DNA of 64,000 nt from a virus. Lineage: Duplodnaviria > Caudoviricetes. Made by a program: the position numbers and the translations under genes. The notes under the pieces were generated by a model. It was not told the DNA's origin. It worked only from the letters and a program-made list of their open reading frames with translations, and did not search any database. Positions 1,186 through 36,016 of the stretch are shown one piece after another. The stretch lies in the IMG/VR virus record IMGVR_UViG_3300025789_000018; one strand, given 5' to 3'. Position 1 is the first letter of the stretch; the number at the start of each line of letters is the position of its first letter.

Positions 1186-1674
1186 TTATGGAATACGGAC
1201 ATTTATTTCTTTCTCCATTAGAAAACCATGCTTGTTATGGTCGTAATAGTGTTTTAATAATTTAAGATTGGCAAATCCTAACGATTCATATAGCTTTCTA
1301 GCAGCGATATTATCTTCGCGAACATGTAGCCTTGCATACTTATACTTCATTGTATTGATGAAGTCAAGCACGTTTTCAACAATAATGCGGCCATACCCTT
1401 TGCCGCGATGAGCTTCGGATATGGCCACACTTTGTATATACGTATATCTTCGTTTGCGAATTATCCAGCAGTAACCAATTACTATTTCTGGATTACTCTG
1501 AATAAAAATAGGAGACTTCACAGTTAAGATGAATATCTCATTATCATTAAGAGCCAATTTAATATCTTTTTTGCGAATGATTATGTTCGCATCAAAAGAA
1601 GTCTTTTCTATTGCATAAATTTCTTTAAGATGCTCTTTTGTAGCGAGCTTAAAGGATGGGTTATAGAGCGCCAC
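1186..1674 (-). CDS. GNAT N-acetyltransferase, RimI-like
   Basis: Motif A SVAISEAHRGKGYGR and motif B LHVREDNIAARKLYESLGF; GTG start. Confidence 0.88.
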   Translation of the reverse strand: MALYNPSFKLATKEHLKEIYAIEKTSFDANIIIRKKDIKLALNDNEIFILTVKSPIFIQSNPEIVIGYCWIIRKRRYTYIQSVAISEAHRGKGYGRIIVENVLDFINTMKYKYARLHVREDNIAARKLYESLGFANLKLLKHYYDHNKHGFLMEKEINVRIP

Positions 1675-4933: not shown

Positions 4934-5096
4934 CAGTAACCCTTCTGTATAATTTATCAACTTTTTGTTCTAGCTTATTTATTCTAGCTAGAAGGTGCGG
5001 AACACAACTATGAACCTGATACTCACCATCTTTGATCTCTTGGTTGCAGAGAGAACAACTTATTTTACTCTCTGTATAAATGAAGTCACGAATCAT
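4914..5096 (-). CDS. Small hypothetical protein with CxxC...HxC and coiled coil
   Basis: 60-aa ORF overlapping thyX stop and nrdA start; CSLCNQ...HSC. Confidence 0.6.
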   Translation of the reverse strand: MIRDFIYTESKISCSLCNQEIKDGEYQVHSCVPHLLARINKLEQKVDKLYRRVTDDDFCD

Positions 5097-5772
5097 TCTT
5101 CAATGCCTCAATAATAGCAGGGAAGCGTTCACCAATGATTTCCCAGCACTGTTCTGCTACGATACGATGTTCCTTCTGTGTTGCTTTGTCCATGCGAATC
5201 TGACAGTAGTGAACCCAAGAGCGAAGCGAACCAGACATAATAAGCACAGATTCCATCATACCCTCCGGCAGTACTCCTCTTGCAACTTCCTTAGCAACAC
5301 CATTTTCGATTGCCCATTTATAGGATTTCAATGCTGCCCTTTTGACAATATCTTGCGCATCGTCCCATAATGCTTCCAGATAAATATCATCTACATCAAC
5401 ACTATTCTGACGGTTCTTTGGATCCTGCAAACGCGCTTCACGAGTAACGAACTTCAAGTCCTTAGTGGGATCAGCATAACGCTGGCTATACTCTTGAAAC
5501 GAGAACGAACGATGACGAAGAATCTGTCGGGCAATGTCGCGTGTGGTCTTAATCTCCATTGAGATATGGACCATTTCAAGGGGTGACCAATGCTGATTTG
5601 TGATCAGATACTTGAGCAGCTTTGGTGCAGTCTGTGTGTTGTTCTGGTTTGATGGATTCGATACACGGGCACACCATGCCACTAGTTCGGATGCATCTGT
5701 ACAACCAGTATACTCATAATCAGGCTGAGTAATGCCTACAAGATTAACACTGCTCATAATCATCACTTTCAT
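5086..5772 (-). CDS. thyX: Flavin-dependent thymidylate synthase
   Basis: ARVS, HWSPLEM, RQILRHRSFSFQEYSQRYA ThyX signature, AREVL-like AKEVARGVLP, TQKEHR. True start may be a few codons downstream. Confidence 0.96.
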   Translation of the reverse strand: MKVMIMSSVNLVGITQPDYEYTGCTDASELVAWCARVSNPSNQNNTQTAPKLLKYLITNQHWSPLEMVHISMEIKTTRDIARQILRHRSFSFQEYSQRYADPTKDLKFVTREARLQDPKNRQNSVDVDDIYLEALWDDAQDIVKRAALKSYKWAIENGVAKEVARGVLPEGMMESVLIMSGSLRSWVHYCQIRMDKATQKEHRIVAEQCWEIIGERFPAIIEALKNDS

Positions 5773-6820: not shown

Positions 6821-7345
6821 TCAATCTGCCTTTGCTGGTGTAAAGTCTGTATCAAGTGGTTCGATGTGTGTCTTGGTAAAGACAATAGGAACCGAAGGTA
6901 GTTCTTCTGGTACAGCAGTATTACCATAGTCATAACTGACTGTAATATGTGGATTAAAGTCTGGATAGTCGTGAGTAGCACCAAATTGTGCTCTAATAGA
7001 ATTATGATGTTCTACAAGCTCTGGACAATCAATCAAAGCAACCAGACAGTTCTTGAAGATTTCCCACTTGGATATTGTACCGGTCAGTGGCAGATCAAGC
7101 TTATAGTCCTTAACATCAGGAACACCCTTACGACTATAAATGATTGTGGTGTGATACTGCTTGGGATCAGTTGCATTGGGAATATTATGTGTGGCAACCC
7201 AAGCAGCTAGATCTTTCTGAGTTTTAGTAGATACATTAGCACACATGTAAGTGCCACCAGCATGATTCTTCACTTTTAACTTCTCCAAGAAAAGCATACG
7301 TTTACGAAATGTCATCATATAATGTGTTTTATTCTTTATTTCCAC
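6821..7345 (-). CDS. acb1: Anti-CBASS nuclease Acb1 (T4 gp57B-like 2H phosphoesterase)
   Basis: Two HxT motifs in Acb1 context: YHTTIIYSR and ATHDYPDFNPHITVSY; GTYM at N-terminus. Real start is probably one of the ATGs near 7315. Confidence 0.85.
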   Translation of the reverse strand: MEIKNKTHYMMTFRKRMLFLEKLKVKNHAGGTYMCANVSTKTQKDLAAWVATHNIPNATDPKQYHTTIIYSRKGVPDVKDYKLDLPLTGTISKWEIFKNCLVALIDCPELVEHHNSIRAQFGATHDYPDFNPHITVSYDYGNTAVPEELPSVPIVFTKTHIEPLDTDFTPAKAD

Positions 7346-7407
7346 ACATCACTCATAAAGTTCACATTCAAAGTCTGTCTTGCACATGAAACCAGTCATT
7401 TTTTCAC

Positions 7408-8430
7408 TCATACTTTTCTCCATTCAGCCAGCTTCATTCGAGCCATCAATCCATTATATGTATTCGCATTAATAATGGCCTGGAGATCCTCGTTCTCATA
7501 TCCGGCAAGGATCATATCGTTGATATCTTTCTCGTGAACATTGCTGGGCCATATGCATACATTATACCCTTTTTCAATGTTCTTGTCAAGCAATTTTACA
7601 ATCTCTTTATTACGCGGCTCATTGTCCAGCACAATAGTAAAATCAGGAAAGCTAGGCAATGAAACATCAGAACCGGCCATAGCTACACTATTGCTTATGA
7701 ACATAGAGTCAATCGGTCCTTCGAAAACGAAAACCTTTTTGCTTTTGTTGACAGTATCTAACCCATAGATTTTGGTCTTGTCTTTACGCAACATGATACT
7801 AATATATCGAACAGCATCATTCTTCTTCAAAGACCTACCTTGATACCCAAAGAAATTCTTATCTTCATCAAAGAACGGAATAACCAGTCGTGGCTCATCC
7901 CCCTGCTCTAGATTAAACTTATTAGGAATCATGGTGTTCGTCCATGCTTTAAACTTAGGAGCATAGAACATCTTTGAATGGTAGTAATTGGGAATCTTCC
8001 TACTAACCACATACTGCTTGACAGGATGATCCCACTTCAGCTGAGAAATCTTCTTCAGCTTAGAAAGCGGCTCACCCTTACGCAAATGATCAGGAAAAGA
8101 AAATTCTAGATTTTCAGTCTTTTTCTCAACCTTCTTGACTTCACCATCATTAAGGAAACGTTCTTTGACGTATTCATTATGAAGATCAGGATTGACTGTC
8201 TTAAGAAAGAATGGGAAAGTCATTCCCGCACCACAGTTGTGGCAGCGAAATCGCAGCTTGTCTTTGTTTTGGTAGATGTAGCCACGAGCCTTTGATGCAT
8301 TCTTTGTCGAGTCGCCACAGATTGGGCAACGACAATTGGCCAAGTAAGGCTCGTTCGCCTTTACCTTGAACCTTTTAAGACTTGATGAGAGTAGGTTGGC
8401 GTACTTGACGTCCATCCATGTATGATACAT
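7408..8430 (-). CDS. gp61: DNA primase (T4 gp61-like)
   Basis: Zn ribbon CRCPICGDS...CHNCG, GYQGRSL, TOPRIM VFEGPIDSMF, DNEPRNKEI, KDINDM. Confidence 0.96.
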   Translation of the reverse strand: MYHTWMDVKYANLLSSSLKRFKVKANEPYLANCRCPICGDSTKNASKARGYIYQNKDKLRFRCHNCGAGMTFPFFLKTVNPDLHNEYVKERFLNDGEVKKVEKKTENLEFSFPDHLRKGEPLSKLKKISQLKWDHPVKQYVVSRKIPNYYHSKMFYAPKFKAWTNTMIPNKFNLEQGDEPRLVIPFFDEDKNFFGYQGRSLKKNDAVRYISIMLRKDKTKIYGLDTVNKSKKVFVFEGPIDSMFISNSVAMAGSDVSLPSFPDFTIVLDNEPRNKEIVKLLDKNIEKGYNVCIWPSNVHEKDINDMILAGYENEDLQAIINANTYNGLMARMKLAEWRKV

Positions 8431-8462
8431 AAGCGTTATCCATTATCAAAACCACATTAGTG

Positions 8463-8490
8463 ATTATACCACAACAAGCAAAAATAGCAA
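8463..8490 (-). promoter_or_regulatory. Sigma70-type promoter upstream of primase
   Basis: TTGCTA-N16-TATAAT with TG extended -10 element. Confidence 0.65.
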
Positions 8491-8499
8491 GTTCTTTTT

Positions 8500-8826
8500 T
8501 TAATGAATAAGTCGCATTCCAAAAGTTATAGCAGTCATGATGATAACACTAATAACAGCAGAGATCCCGCTCAATTTCCACTTCCAGCTTTCAAGATCAG
8601 CGATTCTTTCTATGATCTCATCAAACATTTCTTTATTATATTCTTTAGTTTCCATGTTAGAAGTTTCAATGTGTTCAATTTTAACTTCATGAACAGCAAT
8701 CATTTTCTCTAAAGACACACTAACATCAGTAAGTTTTTCAATAGATGTGTCAATTCTATCGCAAAGATTAGCAATCTGATCAATATCTCTTTCTATTAGA
8801 GAAATTTTAGTATCTAATCCAGTCAT
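8500..8826 (-). CDS. Coiled-coil protein with C-terminal transmembrane helix (holin-like candidate)
   Basis: Heptad-rich N-terminus, WKWKLSGISAVISVIIMTAITFG TM segment; directly follows the spanin pair. Confidence 0.5.
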   Translation of the reverse strand: MTGLDTKISLIERDIDQIANLCDRIDTSIEKLTDVSVSLEKMIAVHEVKIEHIETSNMETKEYNKEMFDEIIERIADLESWKWKLSGISAVISVIIMTAITFGMRLIH

Positions 8827-22631: not shown

Positions 22632-25130
22632 TTAATCATTGAAAAAATCTTCTAGAGTGTTAACGTATTCAGTTTTCCACCCAATTGCATTGCTAATTAT
22701 TCGCAACGGGTCGAGAAAGGCTTTGTTAAATTGAGTTTCGTAGTCGATGTATTTGTCCAAGTCCAATGACTTTGGCAAATTATTAACCACAGATATTACG
22801 TTTTCTTTTAGAGTATTGGGCGTAGTCATGTAACAGAACTTAATCTTTTCACCTTCCTGAACGCCTGGAAATTTACTATCCAATCCCTTTTCTTTAAGGA
22901 AATGATTATAAACTAGAGCGCCTCTGACATGAATCGGAGTCGATAGTCTATAGATGGTGGATGGACTGGAAAACTTAGCAAGATTATTGCAGCCCCGAGG
23001 AAAGGCAATTTCTTCAAAGGGCAAAGTTTCAAACTCATCTTTGAATTGTTCAATAAATTCGACCAGCTGATCCTCTGTTCCTTCCATCATAATCCTCAGA
23101 GCTTGCTTAATCTTTTCTCTGCAAGAAGAAGGAGTTGATGATTTAACAGCTTCAATACCCATCATCTTTAGCTTAGGTGCAGGATACCGGATTCCTTCAC
23201 TATCCCACACGTTAAGAATATACCGCTTCTTGGCAGTCCAGATGCCCTTGTCTGCAATAGCTTCACGCTTCATAGAAAGAAACGAGTTATATGCTTTAGT
23301 ATACACAGCAAAAGCATCAAGAGTTTTTGCGATATAAGGCTCTAGCTTTTCCTTACAAATTTTATCAACAATGTTGATCTTTTGCTCAAGAGTTTTGCCA
23401 TCAGCAATTTTATCGACAAGTTTCCCCAGTTTAACGTAGTTGGAATCGGTATCTACAGCAATAACATAATCTTCATCTTTAGTGCCAAGTATCTTATTCA
23501 GATACAGGTTCATATTTGTTTCTACATATCTAATGGCAAGCTGGCCAGATAGGGTAATTGCTTCAGCAAAAGCCAAACTATACCACCGACAATAAGCATT
23601 TCCAATAGCGCCATAAAGAGAGTTGAGCTGAATTTTACGAGCCATCTGCATGTTGTTGTATCTAGCGATAGCATTCTTGAGTTCCTTTGTGGGATTCTTT
23701 TGGTATTCTCTTTCAGCCTCAAACATCTTATTCTTATATGCCTTACGGTCTTTCATCATCTTTTCGACAATCTCAGGGAAAATTCCCTTTTTAGATTTGT
23801 CCCAGAAAGAACCGTTGGCTGCAAGAGTATAGTTTTTCTCAGTCAGTTCCTTATCATATTTAGCCAAAGCATTGTTATAAAGTTGGTCATCAACACTCCA
23901 AAACCCATCAATTTTTCCAACATAGGTTTCCGGCGATAGATTATACTGAACAATCAGAGAAGGGTACAGCGAGGTAACGTCAAACGACACAACCCATTCA
24001 TGCATACCTACCTGCGGATCTTTAACGAAAGCGCCAGCATATTGATCACCTTTGCTGGTAATCTTATTCTGAGGAATGACCAGCTTTTTGTCCATCATGT
24101 AGTTATGAATAATAACGTCCCAAAGACGCACAGAAGTGAATACGTCTTCAAGGTTGATCTTAGCGTCATAAGCAATAGTAAACGCTTGATCCATAAGATT
24201 CAAACGCTCATCCAACTTATCAACAAGAATAACGTCATGAATGTTATATTCAATAAACTTCTGATAGTCATTCAAGAAGAAGTCATGCATGTTATCATAT
24301 TCAGAATAGTCTAGCTTATTCTCACCAATCTCAACGTAGGCGATGTGATCCAGCCGATACGATTCCTGCTGCGTATAGGTAAATTTCTTATACAGCTGCT
24401 GATAATCCATGATAACAATACCCATAGGATTATAGGTTTGCTGCTCCTTACCAAAGATTTCAACCTTAGATTCCAAAAGAATCTTCCAAGGCGAAAGACG
24501 TTTAGCGAAGTCGTGACCAAGAACATTCGTGATACGGTTTACCAGATATGGAATATCGAAAAACTCAATGTTCCATCCAGTAATGACATCGATGTCAAAT
24601 TCTTCCCAACAATCAAGGAATTTGAGAAGCAGCTCTTCTTCATCACGACAGTTATAATAAACTGCGCCTGTATCCTTTACATCAAATTCTCCGCATCCAA
24701 AGACACGGATTTTGTTACCCTTCTTCAAGGTAATAGCTGTAACTTCTCGGTCAGCTGCACGAATATCAGGGAACCCACCATCGGAATTAACTTCGATGTC
24801 AACAGTTGCAACGTTCATACGCTCTTTGTCGTATCGAACTTCACCAGGATATTCATCATTAATGAACGCATAGACAAACTTATCAATACCATAAATGGGA
24901 AAGTTCGACAAGTCGTCATACTTCTTTAGAAACTCTTTGCCTTCCTGAAGGTTTTCGAAATCATATTTGGCTACAGGATTTCCATCTAGAGTATGATACT
25001 CCGACTCTTCTTTGCATGGAACAAACAAATATGGCTTATACTGTACCTTATGGTGTTCGCGCTTTGCACCATTCCAACCTCTAACAAAGATGTAATTTCC
25101 GCGCTGTATAGCGGACGTGTAAAATCGCAT
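22632..25130 (-). CDS. gp43: Family B DNA polymerase (T4 gp43-like)
   Basis: Exo DIE and GWNIEFFD; Pol SFDVTSLYPS, KIQLNSLYG, AVDTDS; C-terminal clamp peptide TLEDFFND. Confidence 0.98.
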   Translation of the reverse strand: MRFYTSAIQRGNYIFVRGWNGAKREHHKVQYKPYLFVPCKEESEYHTLDGNPVAKYDFENLQEGKEFLKKYDDLSNFPIYGIDKFVYAFINDEYPGEVRYDKERMNVATVDIEVNSDGGFPDIRAADREVTAITLKKGNKIRVFGCGEFDVKDTGAVYYNCRDEEELLLKFLDCWEEFDIDVITGWNIEFFDIPYLVNRITNVLGHDFAKRLSPWKILLESKVEIFGKEQQTYNPMGIVIMDYQQLYKKFTYTQQESYRLDHIAYVEIGENKLDYSEYDNMHDFFLNDYQKFIEYNIHDVILVDKLDERLNLMDQAFTIAYDAKINLEDVFTSVRLWDVIIHNYMMDKKLVIPQNKITSKGDQYAGAFVKDPQVGMHEWVVSFDVTSLYPSLIVQYNLSPETYVGKIDGFWSVDDQLYNNALAKYDKELTEKNYTLAANGSFWDKSKKGIFPEIVEKMMKDRKAYKNKMFEAEREYQKNPTKELKNAIARYNNMQMARKIQLNSLYGAIGNAYCRWYSLAFAEAITLSGQLAIRYVETNMNLYLNKILGTKDEDYVIAVDTDSNYVKLGKLVDKIADGKTLEQKINIVDKICKEKLEPYIAKTLDAFAVYTKAYNSFLSMKREAIADKGIWTAKKRYILNVWDSEGIRYPAPKLKMMGIEAVKSSTPSSCREKIKQALRIMMEGTEDQLVEFIEQFKDEFETLPFEEIAFPRGCNNLAKFSSPSTIYRLSTPIHVRGALVYNHFLKEKGLDSKFPGVQEGEKIKFCYMTTPNTLKENVISVVNNLPKSLDLDKYIDYETQFNKAFLDPLRIISNAIGWKTEYVNTLEDFFND

Positions 25131-28462: not shown

Positions 28463-28492
28463 ATTATATAACATATTGACTGCGAAGTCAAT
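28463..28492 (-). promoter_or_regulatory. Sigma70-type promoter of gp45 operon with palindromic -35 region
   Basis: TTGACT(28486-91)-N17-TATAAT(28463-68); perfect 7-bp inverted repeat ATTGACT-gcga-AGTCAAT at 28475-28492. Confidence 0.8.
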
Positions 28493-29454
28493 TACTTTTT
28501 GCTTCCCAGCTTGGTGGGATCAACAGTAGCGGCTGCGCCTACCTGAGCAAGATCGTTTAACGAACCAGCAAAGATATACGAACCAACGTGCTGCAGAGCA
28601 ATCCAAGGAGCAAGCCAAACCTTCAGACCAGCTTCACGAGCCCACTGACAGAACATATAATCTTCTGACAGATAACGGTTCGAGTATTCATGACCAAAAG
28701 CCGAATGCTTGGTGTCAGCAATAAAGTCCATAACTTCCTGTGGAGTAGCCTTTGGATTCTTCTTGAAGAACTCAGCAATTTCCTTGTTGATTCGAGCAGT
28801 CTTGTTGTCGATAAGAGCATCAAACATGCACATAATCTCACGCGAACCGTCGAATGCAGCAGTACGAACGTGGTCTGGTCTGTACATAAGTTCAGCGTAA
28901 GTAGCCGACATCTTATCCAGCGCCGAACGCTTGATCATCATAAAGCCAGTACCAGCTTCAAGAACTTCTGCAGGCTCAGAGATACGGATTTCATTAGCAC
29001 CATTAGCAGGATTAAACACATAGTCACCGACGAACTTTTCAAGAACGTTAGGGTCTTCATCTGCAATACCCTTGTCTACTGCAGTCTTGATCTTTTCCCA
29101 AGCAATGCACTTCTTAGGATAAGGGGCGCAAAGAATGTCATATGGTGAATCATCACCCTGAAGAGCAAGCATAGCAAATACATCCTGAGCATTGAAACCA
29201 ATGTCAGAGTCAATGAATAGCATGTGAGTGCAGTCCGAACGAAGAAATTCGTCTACGCAATAGTTACGAGCGCGAGTAATCAGCGACTCGTTGAAAAGAT
29301 AATAGAATCGTACTTCGATTCCATAGTGAACAGCCATCGCCGATAGGTCATTCGATGAACGAGCAAACATACCTGCGCACATACCACCATACATGGGGGT
29401 AGCAACAAATAGCTTACGCTTACGCATTTCTTCAATAGGAACATTAATATCCAT
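28492..29454 (-). CDS. GT-A fold glycosyltransferase-like protein
   Basis: LFVATPMYGG, ESLITRARN, HMLFIDSDIGF (DxD), GTGFMMIKR, SEDYMFC, HVGSY. Confidence 0.8.
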   Translation of the reverse strand: MDINVPIEEMRKRKLFVATPMYGGMCAGMFARSSNDLSAMAVHYGIEVRFYYLFNESLITRARNYCVDEFLRSDCTHMLFIDSDIGFNAQDVFAMLALQGDDSPYDILCAPYPKKCIAWEKIKTAVDKGIADEDPNVLEKFVGDYVFNPANGANEIRISEPAEVLEAGTGFMMIKRSALDKMSATYAELMYRPDHVRTAAFDGSREIMCMFDALIDNKTARINKEIAEFFKKNPKATPQEVMDFIADTKHSAFGHEYSNRYLSEDYMFCQWAREAGLKVWLAPWIALQHVGSYIFAGSLNDLAQVGAAATVDPTKLGSKK

Positions 29455-30478: not shown

Positions 30479-31027
30479 TCAATTATTAGCATCATGTATA
30501 ACAGTATTTATATAACTCACAATGGTATTTTGCTCATCATACGTATTATTTTCTAGGTGTTCTATGATAAACAGCAGATTAAGATTACTCAAAATATTAG
30601 CAACCTTAGTTTCTCTACCTCGCAACCAGGTTTCATCTTGGTTGCTGCCTCGACTTTCATATCTCAATTCTCTTTCTTTCTTTTGAGTAGAAAGATAAAT
30701 TATAGAAAGATCGAAGTTATCGTTACAATGCTCTAAGAAAGAGTTGTTGAATAGCCTATCGCCTTCAAACAAAACAATAGAATTGTCAGGAATAGAAGAT
30801 AGAAATTTTATAGCTTCTGGCTGAACCGCCATACTCATTCTATCAGTTCCAGCAAACACCTGATCATCTTCATATTTACCTAGAACATATAGATTATCTT
30901 TCTGATGGTAAGGAACCAATTTGAAATCATCTTTGAACTCATCAATTTTATATTGATCAATTATCTTTCTCATAAGAGTAGATTTGCCAGCTCCAGGCTC
31001 TCCACCAATTGCAATAATCTTAACCAT
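30479..31027 (-). CDS. P-loop kinase (type associated with DNA-hypermodification clusters)
   Basis: Walker A GGEPGAGKST, FAGTDRMS, Walker B LFEGDRL, lid R..RGS.Q. Confidence 0.8.
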   Translation of the reverse strand: MVKIIAIGGEPGAGKSTLMRKIIDQYKIDEFKDDFKLVPYHQKDNLYVLGKYEDDQVFAGTDRMSMAVQPEAIKFLSSIPDNSIVLFEGDRLFNNSFLEHCNDNFDLSIIYLSTQKKERELRYESRGSNQDETWLRGRETKVANILSNLNLLFIIEHLENNTYDEQNTIVSYINTVIHDANN

Positions 31028-32024
31028 AGAACATCTCCAATCCTTGTTTTACTTCTCCTTCATCAGAGAACATCCAATTCAGCTTTTCTATTTTACCTGT
31101 ATTAAGAAAAGAAGTAAACTTATTTTTATCAATCTTATTAGTAAGCAGTCTGTTATCTAGGGACTCTTGGCGAGCTTGCCAAAGAACATTCCACTCAATA
31201 CCAGGCCAGTTATCTTCTTCTAGTTGAAATATTTCTTCAGCTTGCCTATCCAAATAATATCCCAAATACCTGCCATGTTTTTCTCTAAAGATTTTCTTAA
31301 AAGAACAAAGGCAAGTTTCCATAGTATAGTAGTTAGCTTCTGATGCTAGATGCGGAAATCTAGTTTTGATTTCAACAAGAATATCTTTTGCTTCTGCTTC
31401 TAAATATGAATATTCTTTTTGTGTCAACTTAGTATCAATCCAATCTGATCGATCAAGCGCCAGCAAAAAGCCATTACGGTGAGAACGACTGCCAGAATAG
31501 TCAGAAAGCATAAGGCTGGTTGGTTCAAGAATAAGACCTGCAGTGCTATGTAAAGACTGCATGTAAAACCAAGTAGTGTATCTTCCAAACTTATGAAACT
31601 CTTTGTTTACAACATTCCAAACATTGTCAAAATTCTGAGATTCATTATCCCCATAATAATTCTCTAGAACTTCTTTTTGAGAAGAGTTTCCTACAAACTT
31701 TTGATAGGACTCAAACATAGAAGGCAAATGCCCCTTGTTGTATTTGGTATCAGTTTGATAACGGAGTCTTTTATAATTTGCAGTGTTCCATTGACTGATT
31801 CTGTCTACAGTTGCAAGCTCGTAGTCGGGAAATTCATTCTTAAGGACCCACGAAGTAGGAAGATAATATGTGTTGGCATATAGCCAGCAAAGCCATACTC
31901 TCTCTTCGCTATTATGCTCATACCTGTTATTAAGATAATTCATCATCCAAATGGCAGGATCGCAATCTTTATACTCTAAAGACCACGCATACCATCGGAT
32001 AAATCTTTCTTTATTATCAAGCAT
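31020..32024 (-). CDS. Amino acid:DNA transferase-like protein (aGPT-Pplase2/AADT, HhH-glycosylase-like fold)
   Basis: KFGRYTTWFYMQ hairpin motif, GSRSHRNG, METCLCSFKK, GRYLGYY; coupled to the P-loop kinase. Confidence 0.72.
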   Translation of the reverse strand: MLDNKERFIRWYAWSLEYKDCDPAIWMMNYLNNRYEHNSEERVWLCWLYANTYYLPTSWVLKNEFPDYELATVDRISQWNTANYKRLRYQTDTKYNKGHLPSMFESYQKFVGNSSQKEVLENYYGDNESQNFDNVWNVVNKEFHKFGRYTTWFYMQSLHSTAGLILEPTSLMLSDYSGSRSHRNGFLLALDRSDWIDTKLTQKEYSYLEAEAKDILVEIKTRFPHLASEANYYTMETCLCSFKKIFREKHGRYLGYYLDRQAEEIFQLEEDNWPGIEWNVLWQARQESLDNRLLTNKIDKNKFTSFLNTGKIEKLNWMFSDEGEVKQGLEMFYG

Positions 32025-32607: not shown

Positions 32608-32636
32608 AGCTTATATCATTTTTCACTGCAAGTCAA
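32608..32636 (-). promoter_or_regulatory. Possible internal sigma70 promoter upstream of GIY-YIG/AADT/kinase genes
   Basis: TTGACT(32631-36)-N17-TAAGCT(32608-13). Confidence 0.5.
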
Positions 32637-33135
32637 TAGCTGATACAACGCCGCCCTTTCTTCCACTATTTACTGCAGAAGAGATGACATCATCATAATC
32701 ATAGATACCATCAGTGTATCGGTCTCCCCCTATTTTAAAAATACTTAAAGAAGAGCCAGACTTCTGTTTTCCCCAAAACTTGAATCCACACTTTTTGTAG
32801 AATGGAACAGCATCAGGTTCAGCAGAAACTCTAAAATATACAGCATCCATTTTCATAGCTTTCAGTAAAGCGTAATCAGTTAGCACTCTACCCACACCCT
32901 TTCCTCTGTGAGAATGGAATGTGTGAAGTAATTGAAGATTTGCCACCTTTGGATCACGTTTGCTGACTGTAACAATTATTGCTCCAAGCAACTCGTCGCC
33001 ATCCCATGCTCCGGTGCAATGTGCCCACTGATCTTGCATGTTGGCTTTAGCTAAGAATGTCTTAGCAAACGAATCTTCTTTTTTGTTAGTGATGGCTGCG
33101 GTAAATTGTTCTTTGCTACAATTAAGTAACTTCAT
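32623..33135 (-). CDS. GNAT acetyltransferase
   Basis: LQLLHTFHSHRGKGVGRVL motif A, AVPFYKKCGF motif B; start reassigned to ATG 33135 (MKLLNC), overlapping the amidoligase stop. Confidence 0.85.
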   Translation of the reverse strand: MKLLNCSKEQFTAAITNKKEDSFAKTFLAKANMQDQWAHCTGAWDGDELLGAIIVTVSKRDPKVANLQLLHTFHSHRGKGVGRVLTDYALLKAMKMDAVYFRVSAEPDAVPFYKKCGFKFWGKQKSGSSLSIFKIGGDRYTDGIYDYDDVISSAVNSGRKGGVVSAIDLQ

Positions 33136-33994
33136 GGAACTCGCGCTTTTTTTCTCCACGCTCTTTATCATATTTGGTATCAACCCATCCTGAATATTCA
33201 TTAGCGTTCCAAATAAATGGAGGAAACTTCAGTTCATATTTATCAAGAATATCTTCCACACTATCACCACCATTCAGAGCAGCATCAATGAAAGCCTCAG
33301 CAAATATGAACTGAGATTCAAGTTCTTCTCTTTTAGTAGTTGATCGGAAACAGCGGAACTCAATAGTTCCTGTGTGCTTCATGCAATATGTGTTGATTGC
33401 ATATCGGAAAGGCCGACCCATAGAAATACCATCTTTACCTGCAGCATGCAATTTGATAAAATGGTTAAAGTCTGTGGCCATGTTAATGATGTTGTCACAC
33501 ATATATTCAGGCATAACACGACCGCCATCATATTTTAGATATGTTTTGGCATTCTTGAATCCCTTCATATCTACACGATCTTCAAACTGATAACAAGCAG
33601 CAATGGTAGCTTCTTGATTCTTCTTGATATAAGAAACCAGTCTCTTTAGTGCATCAAGATCATCTTTAAGGCCAGGAACAAATACATGAAGATGGCCATG
33701 ATTAACACAAGAAGATGATGGAGTATTACCGTGATCTTCAAATATCTTTTTAATTTCTAGAATACGATCAACCTGTTCTTGCCAAGTTTTAGTAGGCTTG
33801 GTGTTTATTTCTCCACCCATAGGAGGTTCTAGACCTAGCGGATCACACGCAATATACTTGTAATCGCCGTGGATATTCACAATATCAGTTTCAGCGTATT
33901 CCCACTTTCCTAAGTTTTCTGGAATACTAATAGAGCGATCAATATCACCCCATTCAATTTCATATCCCCAAGTATAGTCTTTAGTGTTATACAT
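33122..33994 (-). CDS. Amidoligase (COOH-NH2 ligase, glutamine-synthetase-like fold)
   Basis: WGYEIEW, GGEINTKP, NHGHLHV, RYAIN, GTIEFRCF; start at ATG 33994. Confidence 0.82.
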   Translation of the reverse strand: MYNTKDYTWGYEIEWGDIDRSISIPENLGKWEYAETDIVNIHGDYKYIACDPLGLEPPMGGEINTKPTKTWQEQVDRILEIKKIFEDHGNTPSSSCVNHGHLHVFVPGLKDDLDALKRLVSYIKKNQEATIAACYQFEDRVDMKGFKNAKTYLKYDGGRVMPEYMCDNIINMATDFNHFIKLHAAGKDGISMGRPFRYAINTYCMKHTGTIEFRCFRSTTKREELESQFIFAEAFIDAALNGGDSVEDILDKYELKFPPFIWNANEYSGWVDTKYDKERGEKKREFHEVT

Positions 33995-34679
33995 GTTGTA
34001 AATCTTTCTTTCGTACAATATCAACTTCGTGTCGTTCTATCAAAAAACTAACATCGTTCATAAAGTATGTAACATAAGGTTTTGCTTCAGCAATTCCAGA
34101 AACTCCGGCACGATGTAAAATGTCTTTAGTCGATGCAAAAACAACACTCTTAGGCTTATATGAATAATACAAAGGACGCTTACCGTTTCTAAAAAAAGAT
34201 ACTTGTTTATTATACAAAGACAATACAGCACCAGAAATAGAAGCATCTTCCCAAATAAAAGGACTTTTACCTTCAGCCAAACTTTTTAGTAAGAGTTCAG
34301 AATCATTTTTAGTATTACACTTATATCCATAAAGCTCTTCCCATCGCTCAGGAAGTTCTTGAGATATGACACCATTATGGACTAACGAAATCTGAGAAGT
34401 TTCTAGAGGCTGATTATACAACAAGTCAGAAGTGGAATATCTGCAATGTCCAACAAAGCATATATTTCCATCTTCATTTACTAGTTGCTCAAACTCATAA
34501 GTTTCAGCAAATTCATCAGCAGGAAGAGCAGTTCGCTCTGTCCAAATTTGTCCATCTTTGATATATGAAAGACCTGTAGCGTGTTTACCTCTGATCCGAG
34601 ATTCAATAAAAATATTTCTGATAGTAGTAAAATCGGCTTCAGTTGGATCAGAAATATAAGCGCCGATAATACCACACAT
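33987..34679 (-). CDS. Class II (Ntn) glutamine amidotransferase, stand-alone
   Basis: N-terminal MCGIIG, RGKHATG, GHCRYST, NQP, VHNGVI, NDSE, RNGKRPL. Confidence 0.9.
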   Translation of the reverse strand: MCGIIGAYISDPTEADFTTIRNIFIESRIRGKHATGLSYIKDGQIWTERTALPADEFAETYEFEQLVNEDGNICFVGHCRYSTSDLLYNQPLETSQISLVHNGVISQELPERWEELYGYKCNTKNDSELLLKSLAEGKSPFIWEDASISGAVLSLYNKQVSFFRNGKRPLYYSYKPKSVVFASTKDILHRAGVSGIAEAKPYVTYFMNDVSFLIERHEVDIVRKKDLQHV

Positions 34680-36016
34680 TAAAAGAAACTTTCTAGAGAA
34701 CCTGCTGTACTCTTGTCATAAGGATCAGTCATACCGTGCGCAGCAAGGTAGTCAAACCATTCTTGCTCGTCCCACATACCAGGACTCACACCATTCCAAA
34801 GTTTACGCTGAAGGGGATGGTCTTTATTAAGTCTGCGGGAATCAACAAACTTCTTACGAAGCTGTTCATATTCCCAACTTCCAGGTTCAAGCATATCTTC
34901 ACGGAAGTATGCAACAATAGTCATACGATCAGGATTCTCGCCCCGAATTTCTGCATTACCATGGATAGCAGTATGGTTTGCCACAAGGAGAAGATCACCA
35001 GGCTCTAGTTTTACTGCTGCACGATATTCAGGGAGGATAAGTTCCGCGCCTTCCCAACCAGCACCAAGACCGGATAGGTTCGAGAATCCTGACGCAAGAT
35101 CGCCCGCATCGAGGTGCGCGGCGGTGCGGAAATTGTGATTCACTGTAAGAGTAGTGAATACAGTATCAGAAATCAAAAAGTTAGGATCAAGTTTATCTGC
35201 AGCTGCTCTTTGGTTGCCCCAACGCTGCGGAAGAAGTTGGCTGAAACAATGATTCAGCTTCTTCAAATACGGAAAGCTCTTTTCGAAATCCTGCGGATTC
35301 TTTTCAGTAAAAGCAGTTGCTCGCTTATAAGGAATTCTAGGATACCGAGAATAATATCCAGCAACGCCAGACATAACAGTTTGTGCGTAGTTAGTTTCCG
35401 AAATATAATTGTCAAGAATATACTTGGCTTCCGCTCGGCGAGTGTCTTCATGTTTATTGCTTAGACCCTCAACCCAACGATCAAACCATCCAAAATAAGG
35501 ATCATGATCTTTACAGACTTCACTGCGCAACCACACGCAACCACGAGTCTGATCAGGCTCTTTCTTTTGATGTTTAATCTTGATAGATTCTAGACTTTCA
35601 TCATCAAACACAGAAACGTTAGTTCTGGTGAGATATTCAAGAACATCAATCTGATAATTAGAAACCCACTCACGACCACCTCGACCAGAAGCAGAAAGCA
35701 TTTCACCGCGAGGGCCAGCAGCCATACCGCGATTCTGCGATTCAGAGGCAGCACCAATCAGACCTTCATAACAAAGGTAAAGTTCTTCTTGAGTAAAAAC
35801 GTTCTTACGAAATTTCAGGATAATATTATCTTCAGTCATGCTTCCATCAAGAGAAGGACCATAAACGTCAGTATCTTCTGTCAATAAGACATCATAATGG
35901 CTCTCATCAACAAAGCTGCCGATAAGATGATCGCTAGGAATCTTTTGATCAATATAAATTGTTTTTACTGACAAAGAAGTGCAAGGACGGTCGCAGTCTT
36001 TCACGCAGTCTTTCAT
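34679..36016 (-). CDS. TET/JBP-family 2OG-Fe(II) dioxygenase (5-methylpyrimidine oxygenase)
   Basis: SGVAGYYSRYPRIPYKRATAF, TVFTTLTVNHNFRTAAHLDAGD (HxD), AIHGN (distal H), RMTIVAYFRE (2OG-binding R); start at ATG 36016 behind GGAG. Confidence 0.88.
   Translation of the reverse strand: MKDCVKDCDRPCTSLSVKTIYIDQKIPSDHLIGSFVDESHYDVLLTEDTDVYGPSLDGSMTEDNIILKFRKNVFTQEELYLCYEGLIGAASESQNRGMAAGPRGEMLSASGRGGREWVSNYQIDVLEYLTRTNVSVFDDESLESIKIKHQKKEPDQTRGCVWLRSEVCKDHDPYFGWFDRWVEGLSNKHEDTRRAEAKYILDNYISETNYAQTVMSGVAGYYSRYPRIPYKRATAFTEKNPQDFEKSFPYLKKLNHCFSQLLPQRWGNQRAAADKLDPNFLISDTVFTTLTVNHNFRTAAHLDAGDLASGFSNLSGLGAGWEGAELILPEYRAAVKLEPGDLLLVANHTAIHGNAEIRGENPDRMTIVAYFREDMLEPGSWEYEQLRKKFVDSRRLNKDHPLQRKLWNGVSPGMWDEQEWFDYLAAHGMTDPYDKSTAGSLESFF

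Follow-up and report, generated by a model that had tools for sequence, protein, structure and literature searches.

A predicted two-module pathway for thymine hypermodification in an uncultured T4-like phage

A gene cassette carried by an uncultured bacterial virus most likely acts on the thymine of the virus's own DNA. Its best model, in which we have moderate confidence, is a post-replicative thymine hypermodification pathway of six enzymes arranged in two modules. A sequence-only reading of this DNA had singled out three overlapping genes, named as a glutaminase, an amide ligase and a GNAT acetyltransferase, that would together produce an amidated and acetylated base adduct. Families, fold and catalytic residues confirm those enzyme names, and the adjoining dioxygenase, AADT (amino acid:DNA transferase) and kinase genes place the trio within a DNA base hypermodification cassette, as claimed. 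The trio is nevertheless not one functional unit but two half-modules. An amide bond and an acetyl cap are likely, while both routes proposed to them, (a) and (b), are disfavored below. The span covered by that reading left out the AADT and the kinase, without which the pathway cannot be understood.

The pathway would begin with hydroxylation of T in DNA by the dioxygenase to give 5-hmU, which the kinase would convert to 5-phosphomethyl-dU. The AADT Cys would then take up the exocyclic methylene, and the docked glutaminase would hydrolyze glutamine and pass NH3 to the AADT to yield 5-aminomethyl-dU, skipping the glycine-plus-FAD-oxidase detour of phage PaMx11. The ATP-dependent ligase would join a carboxylate, by default the gamma-carboxyl of glutamate, to the base amine as an amide, and the GNAT would acetylate the newly added side chain at its alpha-amine, unless an N-acetylated donor is made first. 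The predicted nucleosides have masses of 257.10, 386.14 and 428.15 Da. What the analysis itself shows is the genes with their folds and catalytic residues, their co-occurrence and their fusions. The first two steps and the AADT chemistry are known from relatives; amination, ligation and acetylation as drawn here are the steps that we infer.

Table 1. Genes of the cassette and its minus-strand run, with window coordinates
Feature	Coordinates	Strand	Support
TET/JBP-family dioxygenase, 444 aa	34679..36013	(-)	PF12851 E 2.7e-22
Class II (Ntn) glutaminase (GATase), stand-alone, 230 aa	33987..34679	(-)	PF13522 (GATase_6) E 3.3e-13
GS/GCL-fold carboxylate-amine ligase, 290 aa	33122..33994	(-)	fold + catalytic residues
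GNAT acetyltransferase, 170 aa	32623..33135	(-)	PF13673 (Acetyltransf_10) E 3e-13
GIY-YIG-like ORF, 184 aa	32017..32571	(-)	T5orf172 E 0.009
AADT (aGPT-Pplase2), 334 aa	31020..32024	(-)	PF18724 E 8.7e-20
P-loop kinase, 5-hmU DNA kinase-like, 182 aa	30479..31027	(-)	PF18751 E 4.3e-12

The window, meaning the whole 64,000-nucleotide stretch analyzed, is a portion of a T4-like phage genome with genes for capsid, portal, clamp and polymerase. Within it the cassette forms a minus-strand run flanked by peptide deformylase and clamp genes (Table 1). The overlaps noted earlier are real: a TAATG at 34681-34677 lets the glutaminase ATG and the dioxygenase stop share one base, the overlap of the ligase gene with the glutaminase end is 8 nt, and that of the GNAT gene with the ligase end is 14 nt. 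An upstream ATG at 33201 was rejected as the GNAT start in favor of 33135, because homologues align from residue 1. The order glutaminase-ligase-GNAT is not due to chance; the GNAT lies behind the ligase in 80/80 of the closest IMG/VR loci, and the GATase lies ahead of it in all 78 closest loci with room for it.

Among uncultured T4-like phages the cassette is found very often: six exact patterns for the ligase returned 235 IMG/VR matches, and 632 protein clusters were counted. Of the INPHARED cultured phages none has the full cassette and just two, phage Simon and Vibrio phage 2.275.O, have matches to the ligase, and phages DLP_6, Cr30 and C48C1, which carry relatives of the dioxygenase, have no GATase, ligase or GNAT nearby; family scans of cultured phage records are too coarse for fine reading, having missed an annotated Ntn gene. 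We do not count the 184-aa GIY-YIG-like ORF among the pathway enzymes; it probably stands outside the chemistry and is unconserved: tblastn found no homologue in 80 related loci. It sits in the slot between GNAT and AADT, which in 26 of 57 dioxygenase loci of relatives (e.g. L136:9474-10796) holds a protein of ~435 aa with weak DndB/GmrSD/ParB-like leads. This slot protein has no match in the window, and the source contig extends past the window.

The dioxygenase most likely converts T to 5-hmU in DNA. Its residues H300, D302, H351 and R363 are near-invariant, and the window contains no C5-methyltransferase motif. O'Toole et al. linked clade C1 dioxygenases to GATase, kinase and AADT and found that they turn T mainly into 5-hmU; the characterized dioxygenase with GATase/AADT linkage makes chiefly 5-hmU and less than 3% each of 5fU and 5caU (PMC13229309). 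Lee et al. described amidoligase and glutaminotransferase domains of unassigned function near 5-hmU kinases and AADTs, with TET/JBP genes in place of dUMP hydroxymethylase (PMC8989533). A ThyX thymidylate synthase is encoded elsewhere in the window (5086-5772; PF02511, E 3.5e-43), so the phage makes dTMP, which is consistent with post-replicative oxidation of T. In four loci (L090, L289, L310 and L404) the GATase-AADT-ligase set lacks a dioxygenase and is accompanied by a dUMP hydroxymethylase-like gene.

The glutaminase starts Met-Cys, which puts C2 at the nucleophile position. It bears the class II marks of an N-terminal Cys, an N102-G103 oxyanion pair, glutamine-binding R80, T83 and D126, and an R30-G31 loop, and all of these residues (C2, R30, G31, R80, T83, N102, G103 and D126) are invariant across 67 homologues. 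Its best solved relatives are PurF (profile E 1e-10) and GlmS, and a Pfam search gave no GATase_4 (EgtC/Dug3) match. The closest cultured GATases belong to LUZ24/RIO-1-type phages, at 24-29% identity. We propose that the enzyme serves as the ammonia-donor subunit of the AADT.

Because all six cassette genes occur together almost without exception in the 80 closest loci, those loci are uninformative about partnership, and distant ligases were therefore collected. The comparison comprised 82 ligase loci, deduplicated at 90% and with at least 3.5 kb per side. Among these, the GATase is paired with a single AADT subfamily at all 61 loci that have it, and the FAD oxidase pairs with the glycine-type AADT in 13 of 16 and with no other AADT type, counts that are phylogenetically dependent, since GATase loci are mostly T4-like and FAD loci mostly M6-like. 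GATase and FAD oxidase never share a locus, yet each occurs with either GNAT or LMW phosphatase, giving all four combinations. The amine module changes eight times on the ligase tree.

A search anchored on the AADT, limited like every scan to the best 80 loci, found GATase and AADT without ligase in 21 loci, 16 of them distinct at 90%, where absence means no ligase within the fetched flanks. Some of these cassettes also lack the GNAT, the minimal form being dioxygenase-glutaminase-AADT-kinase. Outside T4-like contexts, the GATase-AADT pair is found alongside a thymidylate-synthase-like gene in L090, L289, L310, L386 and L404. Fusions join GATase to AADT in five cases (P0274-P0277 and L393), to the ligase in two and to the GNAT in one; a scan of the GATase-ligase fusion clade returned no loci. 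The L393 fusion (7140-8760), from an Acidobacteriota MAG, is in frame, and its AADT part is frameshifted after residue 483.

Structure prediction points the same way. A complex model of AADT and GATase reached an ipSAE of 0.89 against 0.54 for the best control, on a scale whose mark 58 of 80 solved pairs reach and 2 of 110 mismatched pairs do; contacts agreed to at least 93% between runs, with partner pLDDT at least 89. The modeled interface brings the GATase active-site loops 28-33 and 81-84 against AADT motifs 33-40, 63-70 and 274-280. These motifs are kept in every aligned GATase-linked AADT and lost in L388, L389 and L396, which are GATase-free and nested in the GATase-linked clade (support 91). 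As a prediction, the model supports binding between the two proteins; among solved structures, none was found with a class II glutaminase bound to an AADT-like partner. Very probably, then, the glutaminase partners the AADT.

What the pair would make can be read from the AADT active site. In the PaMx11 5-AcNmdU pathway, gp49 is the kinase, gp46 the glycine:DNA transferase, gp47 the FAD oxidase and gp48 the GNAT (PMC8989533, PMC11472151). The window AADT retains the catalytic Cys and metal ligands: C240, E236 and T237 align with C247, E243 and T244 of gp46, and D22 is kept too. The glycine-binding W146/K150 of gp46 are replaced by Y149/F153, and the two enzymes fall in different clades. The window cassette contains no FAD oxidase gene; in related loci the kinase gene follows the AADT. 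Most simply, the nucleophile would be ammonia derived from glutamine and the product 5-aminomethyl-dU, the same end point that a glycine transferase and FAD oxidase reach together. We consider this product likely. Our literature search found no report of an ammonia-using AADT, and the word "ammonia" is absent from the main text of Lee 2021.

The ligase belongs to the GS/GCL fold. In a VIA comparison of its model (pLDDT 97.6), the top 19 matches are all of the GS/GCL family, led by 1tt4 (Z 10.3, rmsd 4.8 over 219 residues), and the first row of unrelated function comes at Z 5.3; the Foldseek top 50 are GS family throughout. Across 127 homologues E12, E14, E62, R197, E212 and R214 are invariant and H101 nearly so, and we take this ExE, E, H, R, ExR set to be the metal/ATP residues of GS. 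Against Amidoligase_2 (PF12224) the ligase scores 15.9 bits (E 0.013), below the gathering cut-off of 22 bits, which several homologues exceed, with scores of up to 42.6 bits. PDB sequence searches with the ligase gave no match, and its family comprises 234 clusters at E 1e-10.

The amine substrate of the ligase is most likely the modified base and the carboxylate a free co-substrate, an order that reverses route (a). We draw this from GATase-free loci, adjoining amine modules and fusions. Phage Simon (L005, PQ683277), cultured and unannotated, has no GATase or GNAT with its ligase anywhere in the genome, and carries a glycine-type AADT, FAD oxidase, LMW phosphatase and kinase. An amine-making module adjoins the ligase in 79 of 82 loci: GATase and AADT in 61, FAD oxidase and AADT in 13, a PLP/radical SAM pair in 3 and QueF in 2. 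The others, L232, L276 and L288, have no amine-making gene nearby. Fusion partners among ligase homologues are 5-hmU kinases, GNAT, LMW phosphatase and a TET-associated glycosyltransferase. We hold with good confidence that the ligase acylates a base-borne amine.

The identity of the acyl group is a more even question. The best structural matches of the ligase activate the gamma-carboxyl of glutamate, which for that reason is the default donor, and by this family default the group has roughly an even chance of being gamma-glutamyl. Relatives of the ligase in Vibrio phage 2.275.O (MG592671; L004:6887-8961) and in L230 (7234-9361) directly adjoin QueF (PF14489, E 2e-19 and 7e-30) within 7-deazaguanine clusters, neighborhoods that predict an acylated preQ1 base; in L004 an Ntn gene is also present, adjoining QueC. 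The deazaguanine paper makes no mention of a ligase (10.1101/2023.04.13.536721). L102, L303, L306 and P0149 carry either two copies of the ligase or two ligases fused together, which suggests longer amide chains.

The GNAT scores 50 bits against PF13673 (cut-off 23.6), matches GNATs in the PDB, has an atlas score of 0.99 and a pI of 9.2. In a tree its clade is confined to ligase-bearing loci and lies apart from the GNATs of ligase-free cassettes (20-28% identity) and from PaMx11 gp48 (~21% identity, separate clade; profile E 1.4e-8). The GNATs of ligase-free cassettes may plausibly make 5-AcNmdU as in PaMx11. Across the 82 ligase loci, GNAT (43) and LMW phosphatase (34) never occur together, and 14 ligase positions switch with the choice between them, from acidic or aromatic beside a GNAT to Arg/His-rich beside a phosphatase. 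This switching fits tailoring of the ligated group, here by acetylation of an alpha-amine. An unrelated second GNAT gene (window 1186-1674; PF00583, E 3.7e-15) adjoins ribonucleotide reductase genes.

The second ligase subfamily (L229-L308, L404) has an LMW phosphatase in place of the GNAT, often with a glycosyltransferase nearby; LMW phosphatase calls in L252, L278, L285 and L303 are uncertain, the ORFs being short. Its ligases carry Arg, Arg, Ser, His and Arg at pocket positions 152, 153, 156, 157 and 203. These features fit ligation of a phosphorylated acid that is then dephosphorylated and glycosylated.

Several other readings compete with this model. In route (a) of the sequence-only reading, the AADT would add an amino acid, a glutaminase-fed ligase would amidate its carboxyl and the GNAT would acetylate its amine. 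In nearly every close locus the GATase, ligase and GNAT genes do follow one another in this order with overlaps, two GATase-ligase fusions exist, the GS fold does amidate carboxylates, and the characterized AADTs all use amino acids or amines (PMC8989533). We nonetheless find the route quite unlikely. The glutaminase tracks with, fuses to and in models docks on the AADT, more often fused to it than to the ligase, and stays with it in the 16 distinct ligase-free cassettes. The ligase in turn dispenses with the glutaminase where an FAD oxidase, a PLP/radical-SAM pair or QueF is present, as in the Simon genome and the 13 FAD loci, and the FAD oxidase removes the very carboxyl that was to be amidated. 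A different division of labor would keep the glutaminase with the AADT as a hydrolase: the amine that the AADT installs would already carry a gamma-glutamyl group, perhaps put on by the ligase while the amine was still a small molecule, and the Ntn enzyme would deprotect it. EgtA/EgtC-type pairs are a precedent for gamma-glutamyl protection and removal, class II folds accept gamma-glutamyl amides of any kind, and the idea accounts both for the GATase-AADT link and for a GS/GCL-fold enzyme nearby. Yet ligase-free cassettes have no source of the protected amine, the ligase also occurs without GATase, and the best relatives are PurF and GlmS, with no GATase_4 match. The acidic ligase (pI 5.4) might suggest a soluble substrate, but the AADT and TET proteins are just as acidic, and pI fails to separate DNA-acting from soluble enzymes. 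We regard this reading as unlikely.

There is a slim chance that the products are parallel, with the GNAT capping 5-aminomethyl-dU to 5-AcNmdU and the ligase acylating other sites, so that no acetylated amide forms. GATase-GNAT-AADT sets in ligase-free cassettes and the weak relationship of gp48 to the window GNAT would suit this; the restriction of the window GNAT clade to ligase loci, the replacement of GNAT by LMW phosphatase when the ligase subfamily changes, and the 14 positions that switch in step with that swap argue against it. That the trio targets a protein, the cell wall or a small molecule, like the GATase-amidoligase operons of LUZ24/RIO-1-type phages, is very improbable: those phages hold the closest cultured GATases, but ligase fusions to 5-hmU DNA kinases and to TET-associated glycosyltransferases exist, and base-modification genes lie beside the ligase at 79 of the 82 loci. 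Iterative oxidation to a 5-carboxy-pyrimidine followed by amidation (271.08 Da), route (b), is scarcely credible. Phage T-dioxygenases can oxidize iteratively, and 5mYOX97 accumulates 5caU on one substrate, yet the GATase/AADT-linked dioxygenase yields less than 3% 5fU or 5caU (PMC13229309). The route would leave the kinase and AADT, which need 5-hmU, without a role, and L090, L289, L310 and L404 hold GATase, AADT and ligase with no dioxygenase.

The chances are about balanced that the glutaminase-AADT pair is a glutamine-dependent ammonia:DNA transferase, a class II amidotransferase with its synthase half working on a DNA base, and that the ligase is a general base-amine acylator, reused on 5-aminomethyl-dU, 5-aminoethyl-dU and preQ1 to give an undescribed family of amide-linked bases. 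Here the product would be N-acetyl-gamma-glutamyl-aminomethyl-dU, the ligase subfamily setting whether the last step is acetylation or dephosphorylation. If true, this would add an amidotransferase of a new kind, one that works on DNA; a short way to put a primary-amine handle on thymine, with possible use in DNA labeling; and a ligase family that joins thymine and 7-deazaguanine modification. The cassette as a gene set is already published, and we found no published assignment of roles for the glutaminase, ligase and GNAT. Such neighborhoods were reportedly first listed by Iyer et al. in 2013, which may anticipate part of the model.

The closest known system, the PaMx11 pathway, shares the kinase, an AADT with catalytic Cys/Glu, a GNAT and, we propose, the 5-aminomethyl-dU intermediate. 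It differs in that its 5-hmU comes from dUMP hydroxymethylase, whereas the window uses a dioxygenase, lacks the FAD oxidase and adds an amide ligase; the window AADT has no glycine pocket of the Trp146/Lys150 kind (also the M6 gp51 type) and, as proposed, has a glutaminase partner instead. The PLP plus radical SAM module beside some ligases resembles M6. Gene content and order match both the clade C1 (ParB-dependent) T-dioxygenase cassettes, which likewise lack a C5-methyltransferase (PMC13229309), and the metavirome clusters with amidoligase and glutaminotransferase domains (PMC8989533, Fig. 2); neither study assigns a function to GATase, ligase or this GNAT. As a difference from clade C1 cassettes, no ParB-slot protein was found in the window, which is shorter than its source contig.

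More distant parallels concern the chemistry. tRNA MnmEG uses ammonium or glycine, so that MnmEG/MnmC likewise offers two routes to 5-aminomethyl-uridine, from ammonium or from glycine plus an FAD oxidase (PMC3936742); it differs in acting on RNA, with an unrelated first enzyme, a folate methylene and no glutaminase subunit. The window glutaminase has the Ntn fold and all glutamine-binding and catalytic residues of PurF, GlmS and AsnB, and PurF uses ammonia to displace a phosphate leaving group, as proposed here; the proposed synthase partner, unlike those of class II amidotransferases, is a helical DNA-modifying AADT. The ligase shares its fold and metal/ATP residues with YbdK, GshA, GS, GmaS and PafA. 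It differs from GS/GCL ligases in identity (9-14%), in forming its own family and in its proposed amine substrate, a modified DNA base.

Other features of the window lie outside the pathway proper. Similar L-E-x-F-F/aromatic C-terminal tails end the dioxygenase (34679-34700), the AADT (31020-31045) and the DNA polymerase (22632-22660); they are conserved in homologues, and their sequence resembles sliding-clamp binding peptides. An anti-CBASS Acb1 homologue is encoded at 6821-7345 (PF23474, E 1.3e-32). A glycosyltransferase-like gene, phrog_1574, lies at 28492-29454; in related phages it often follows the kinase, and it is also found in phages without the cassette.
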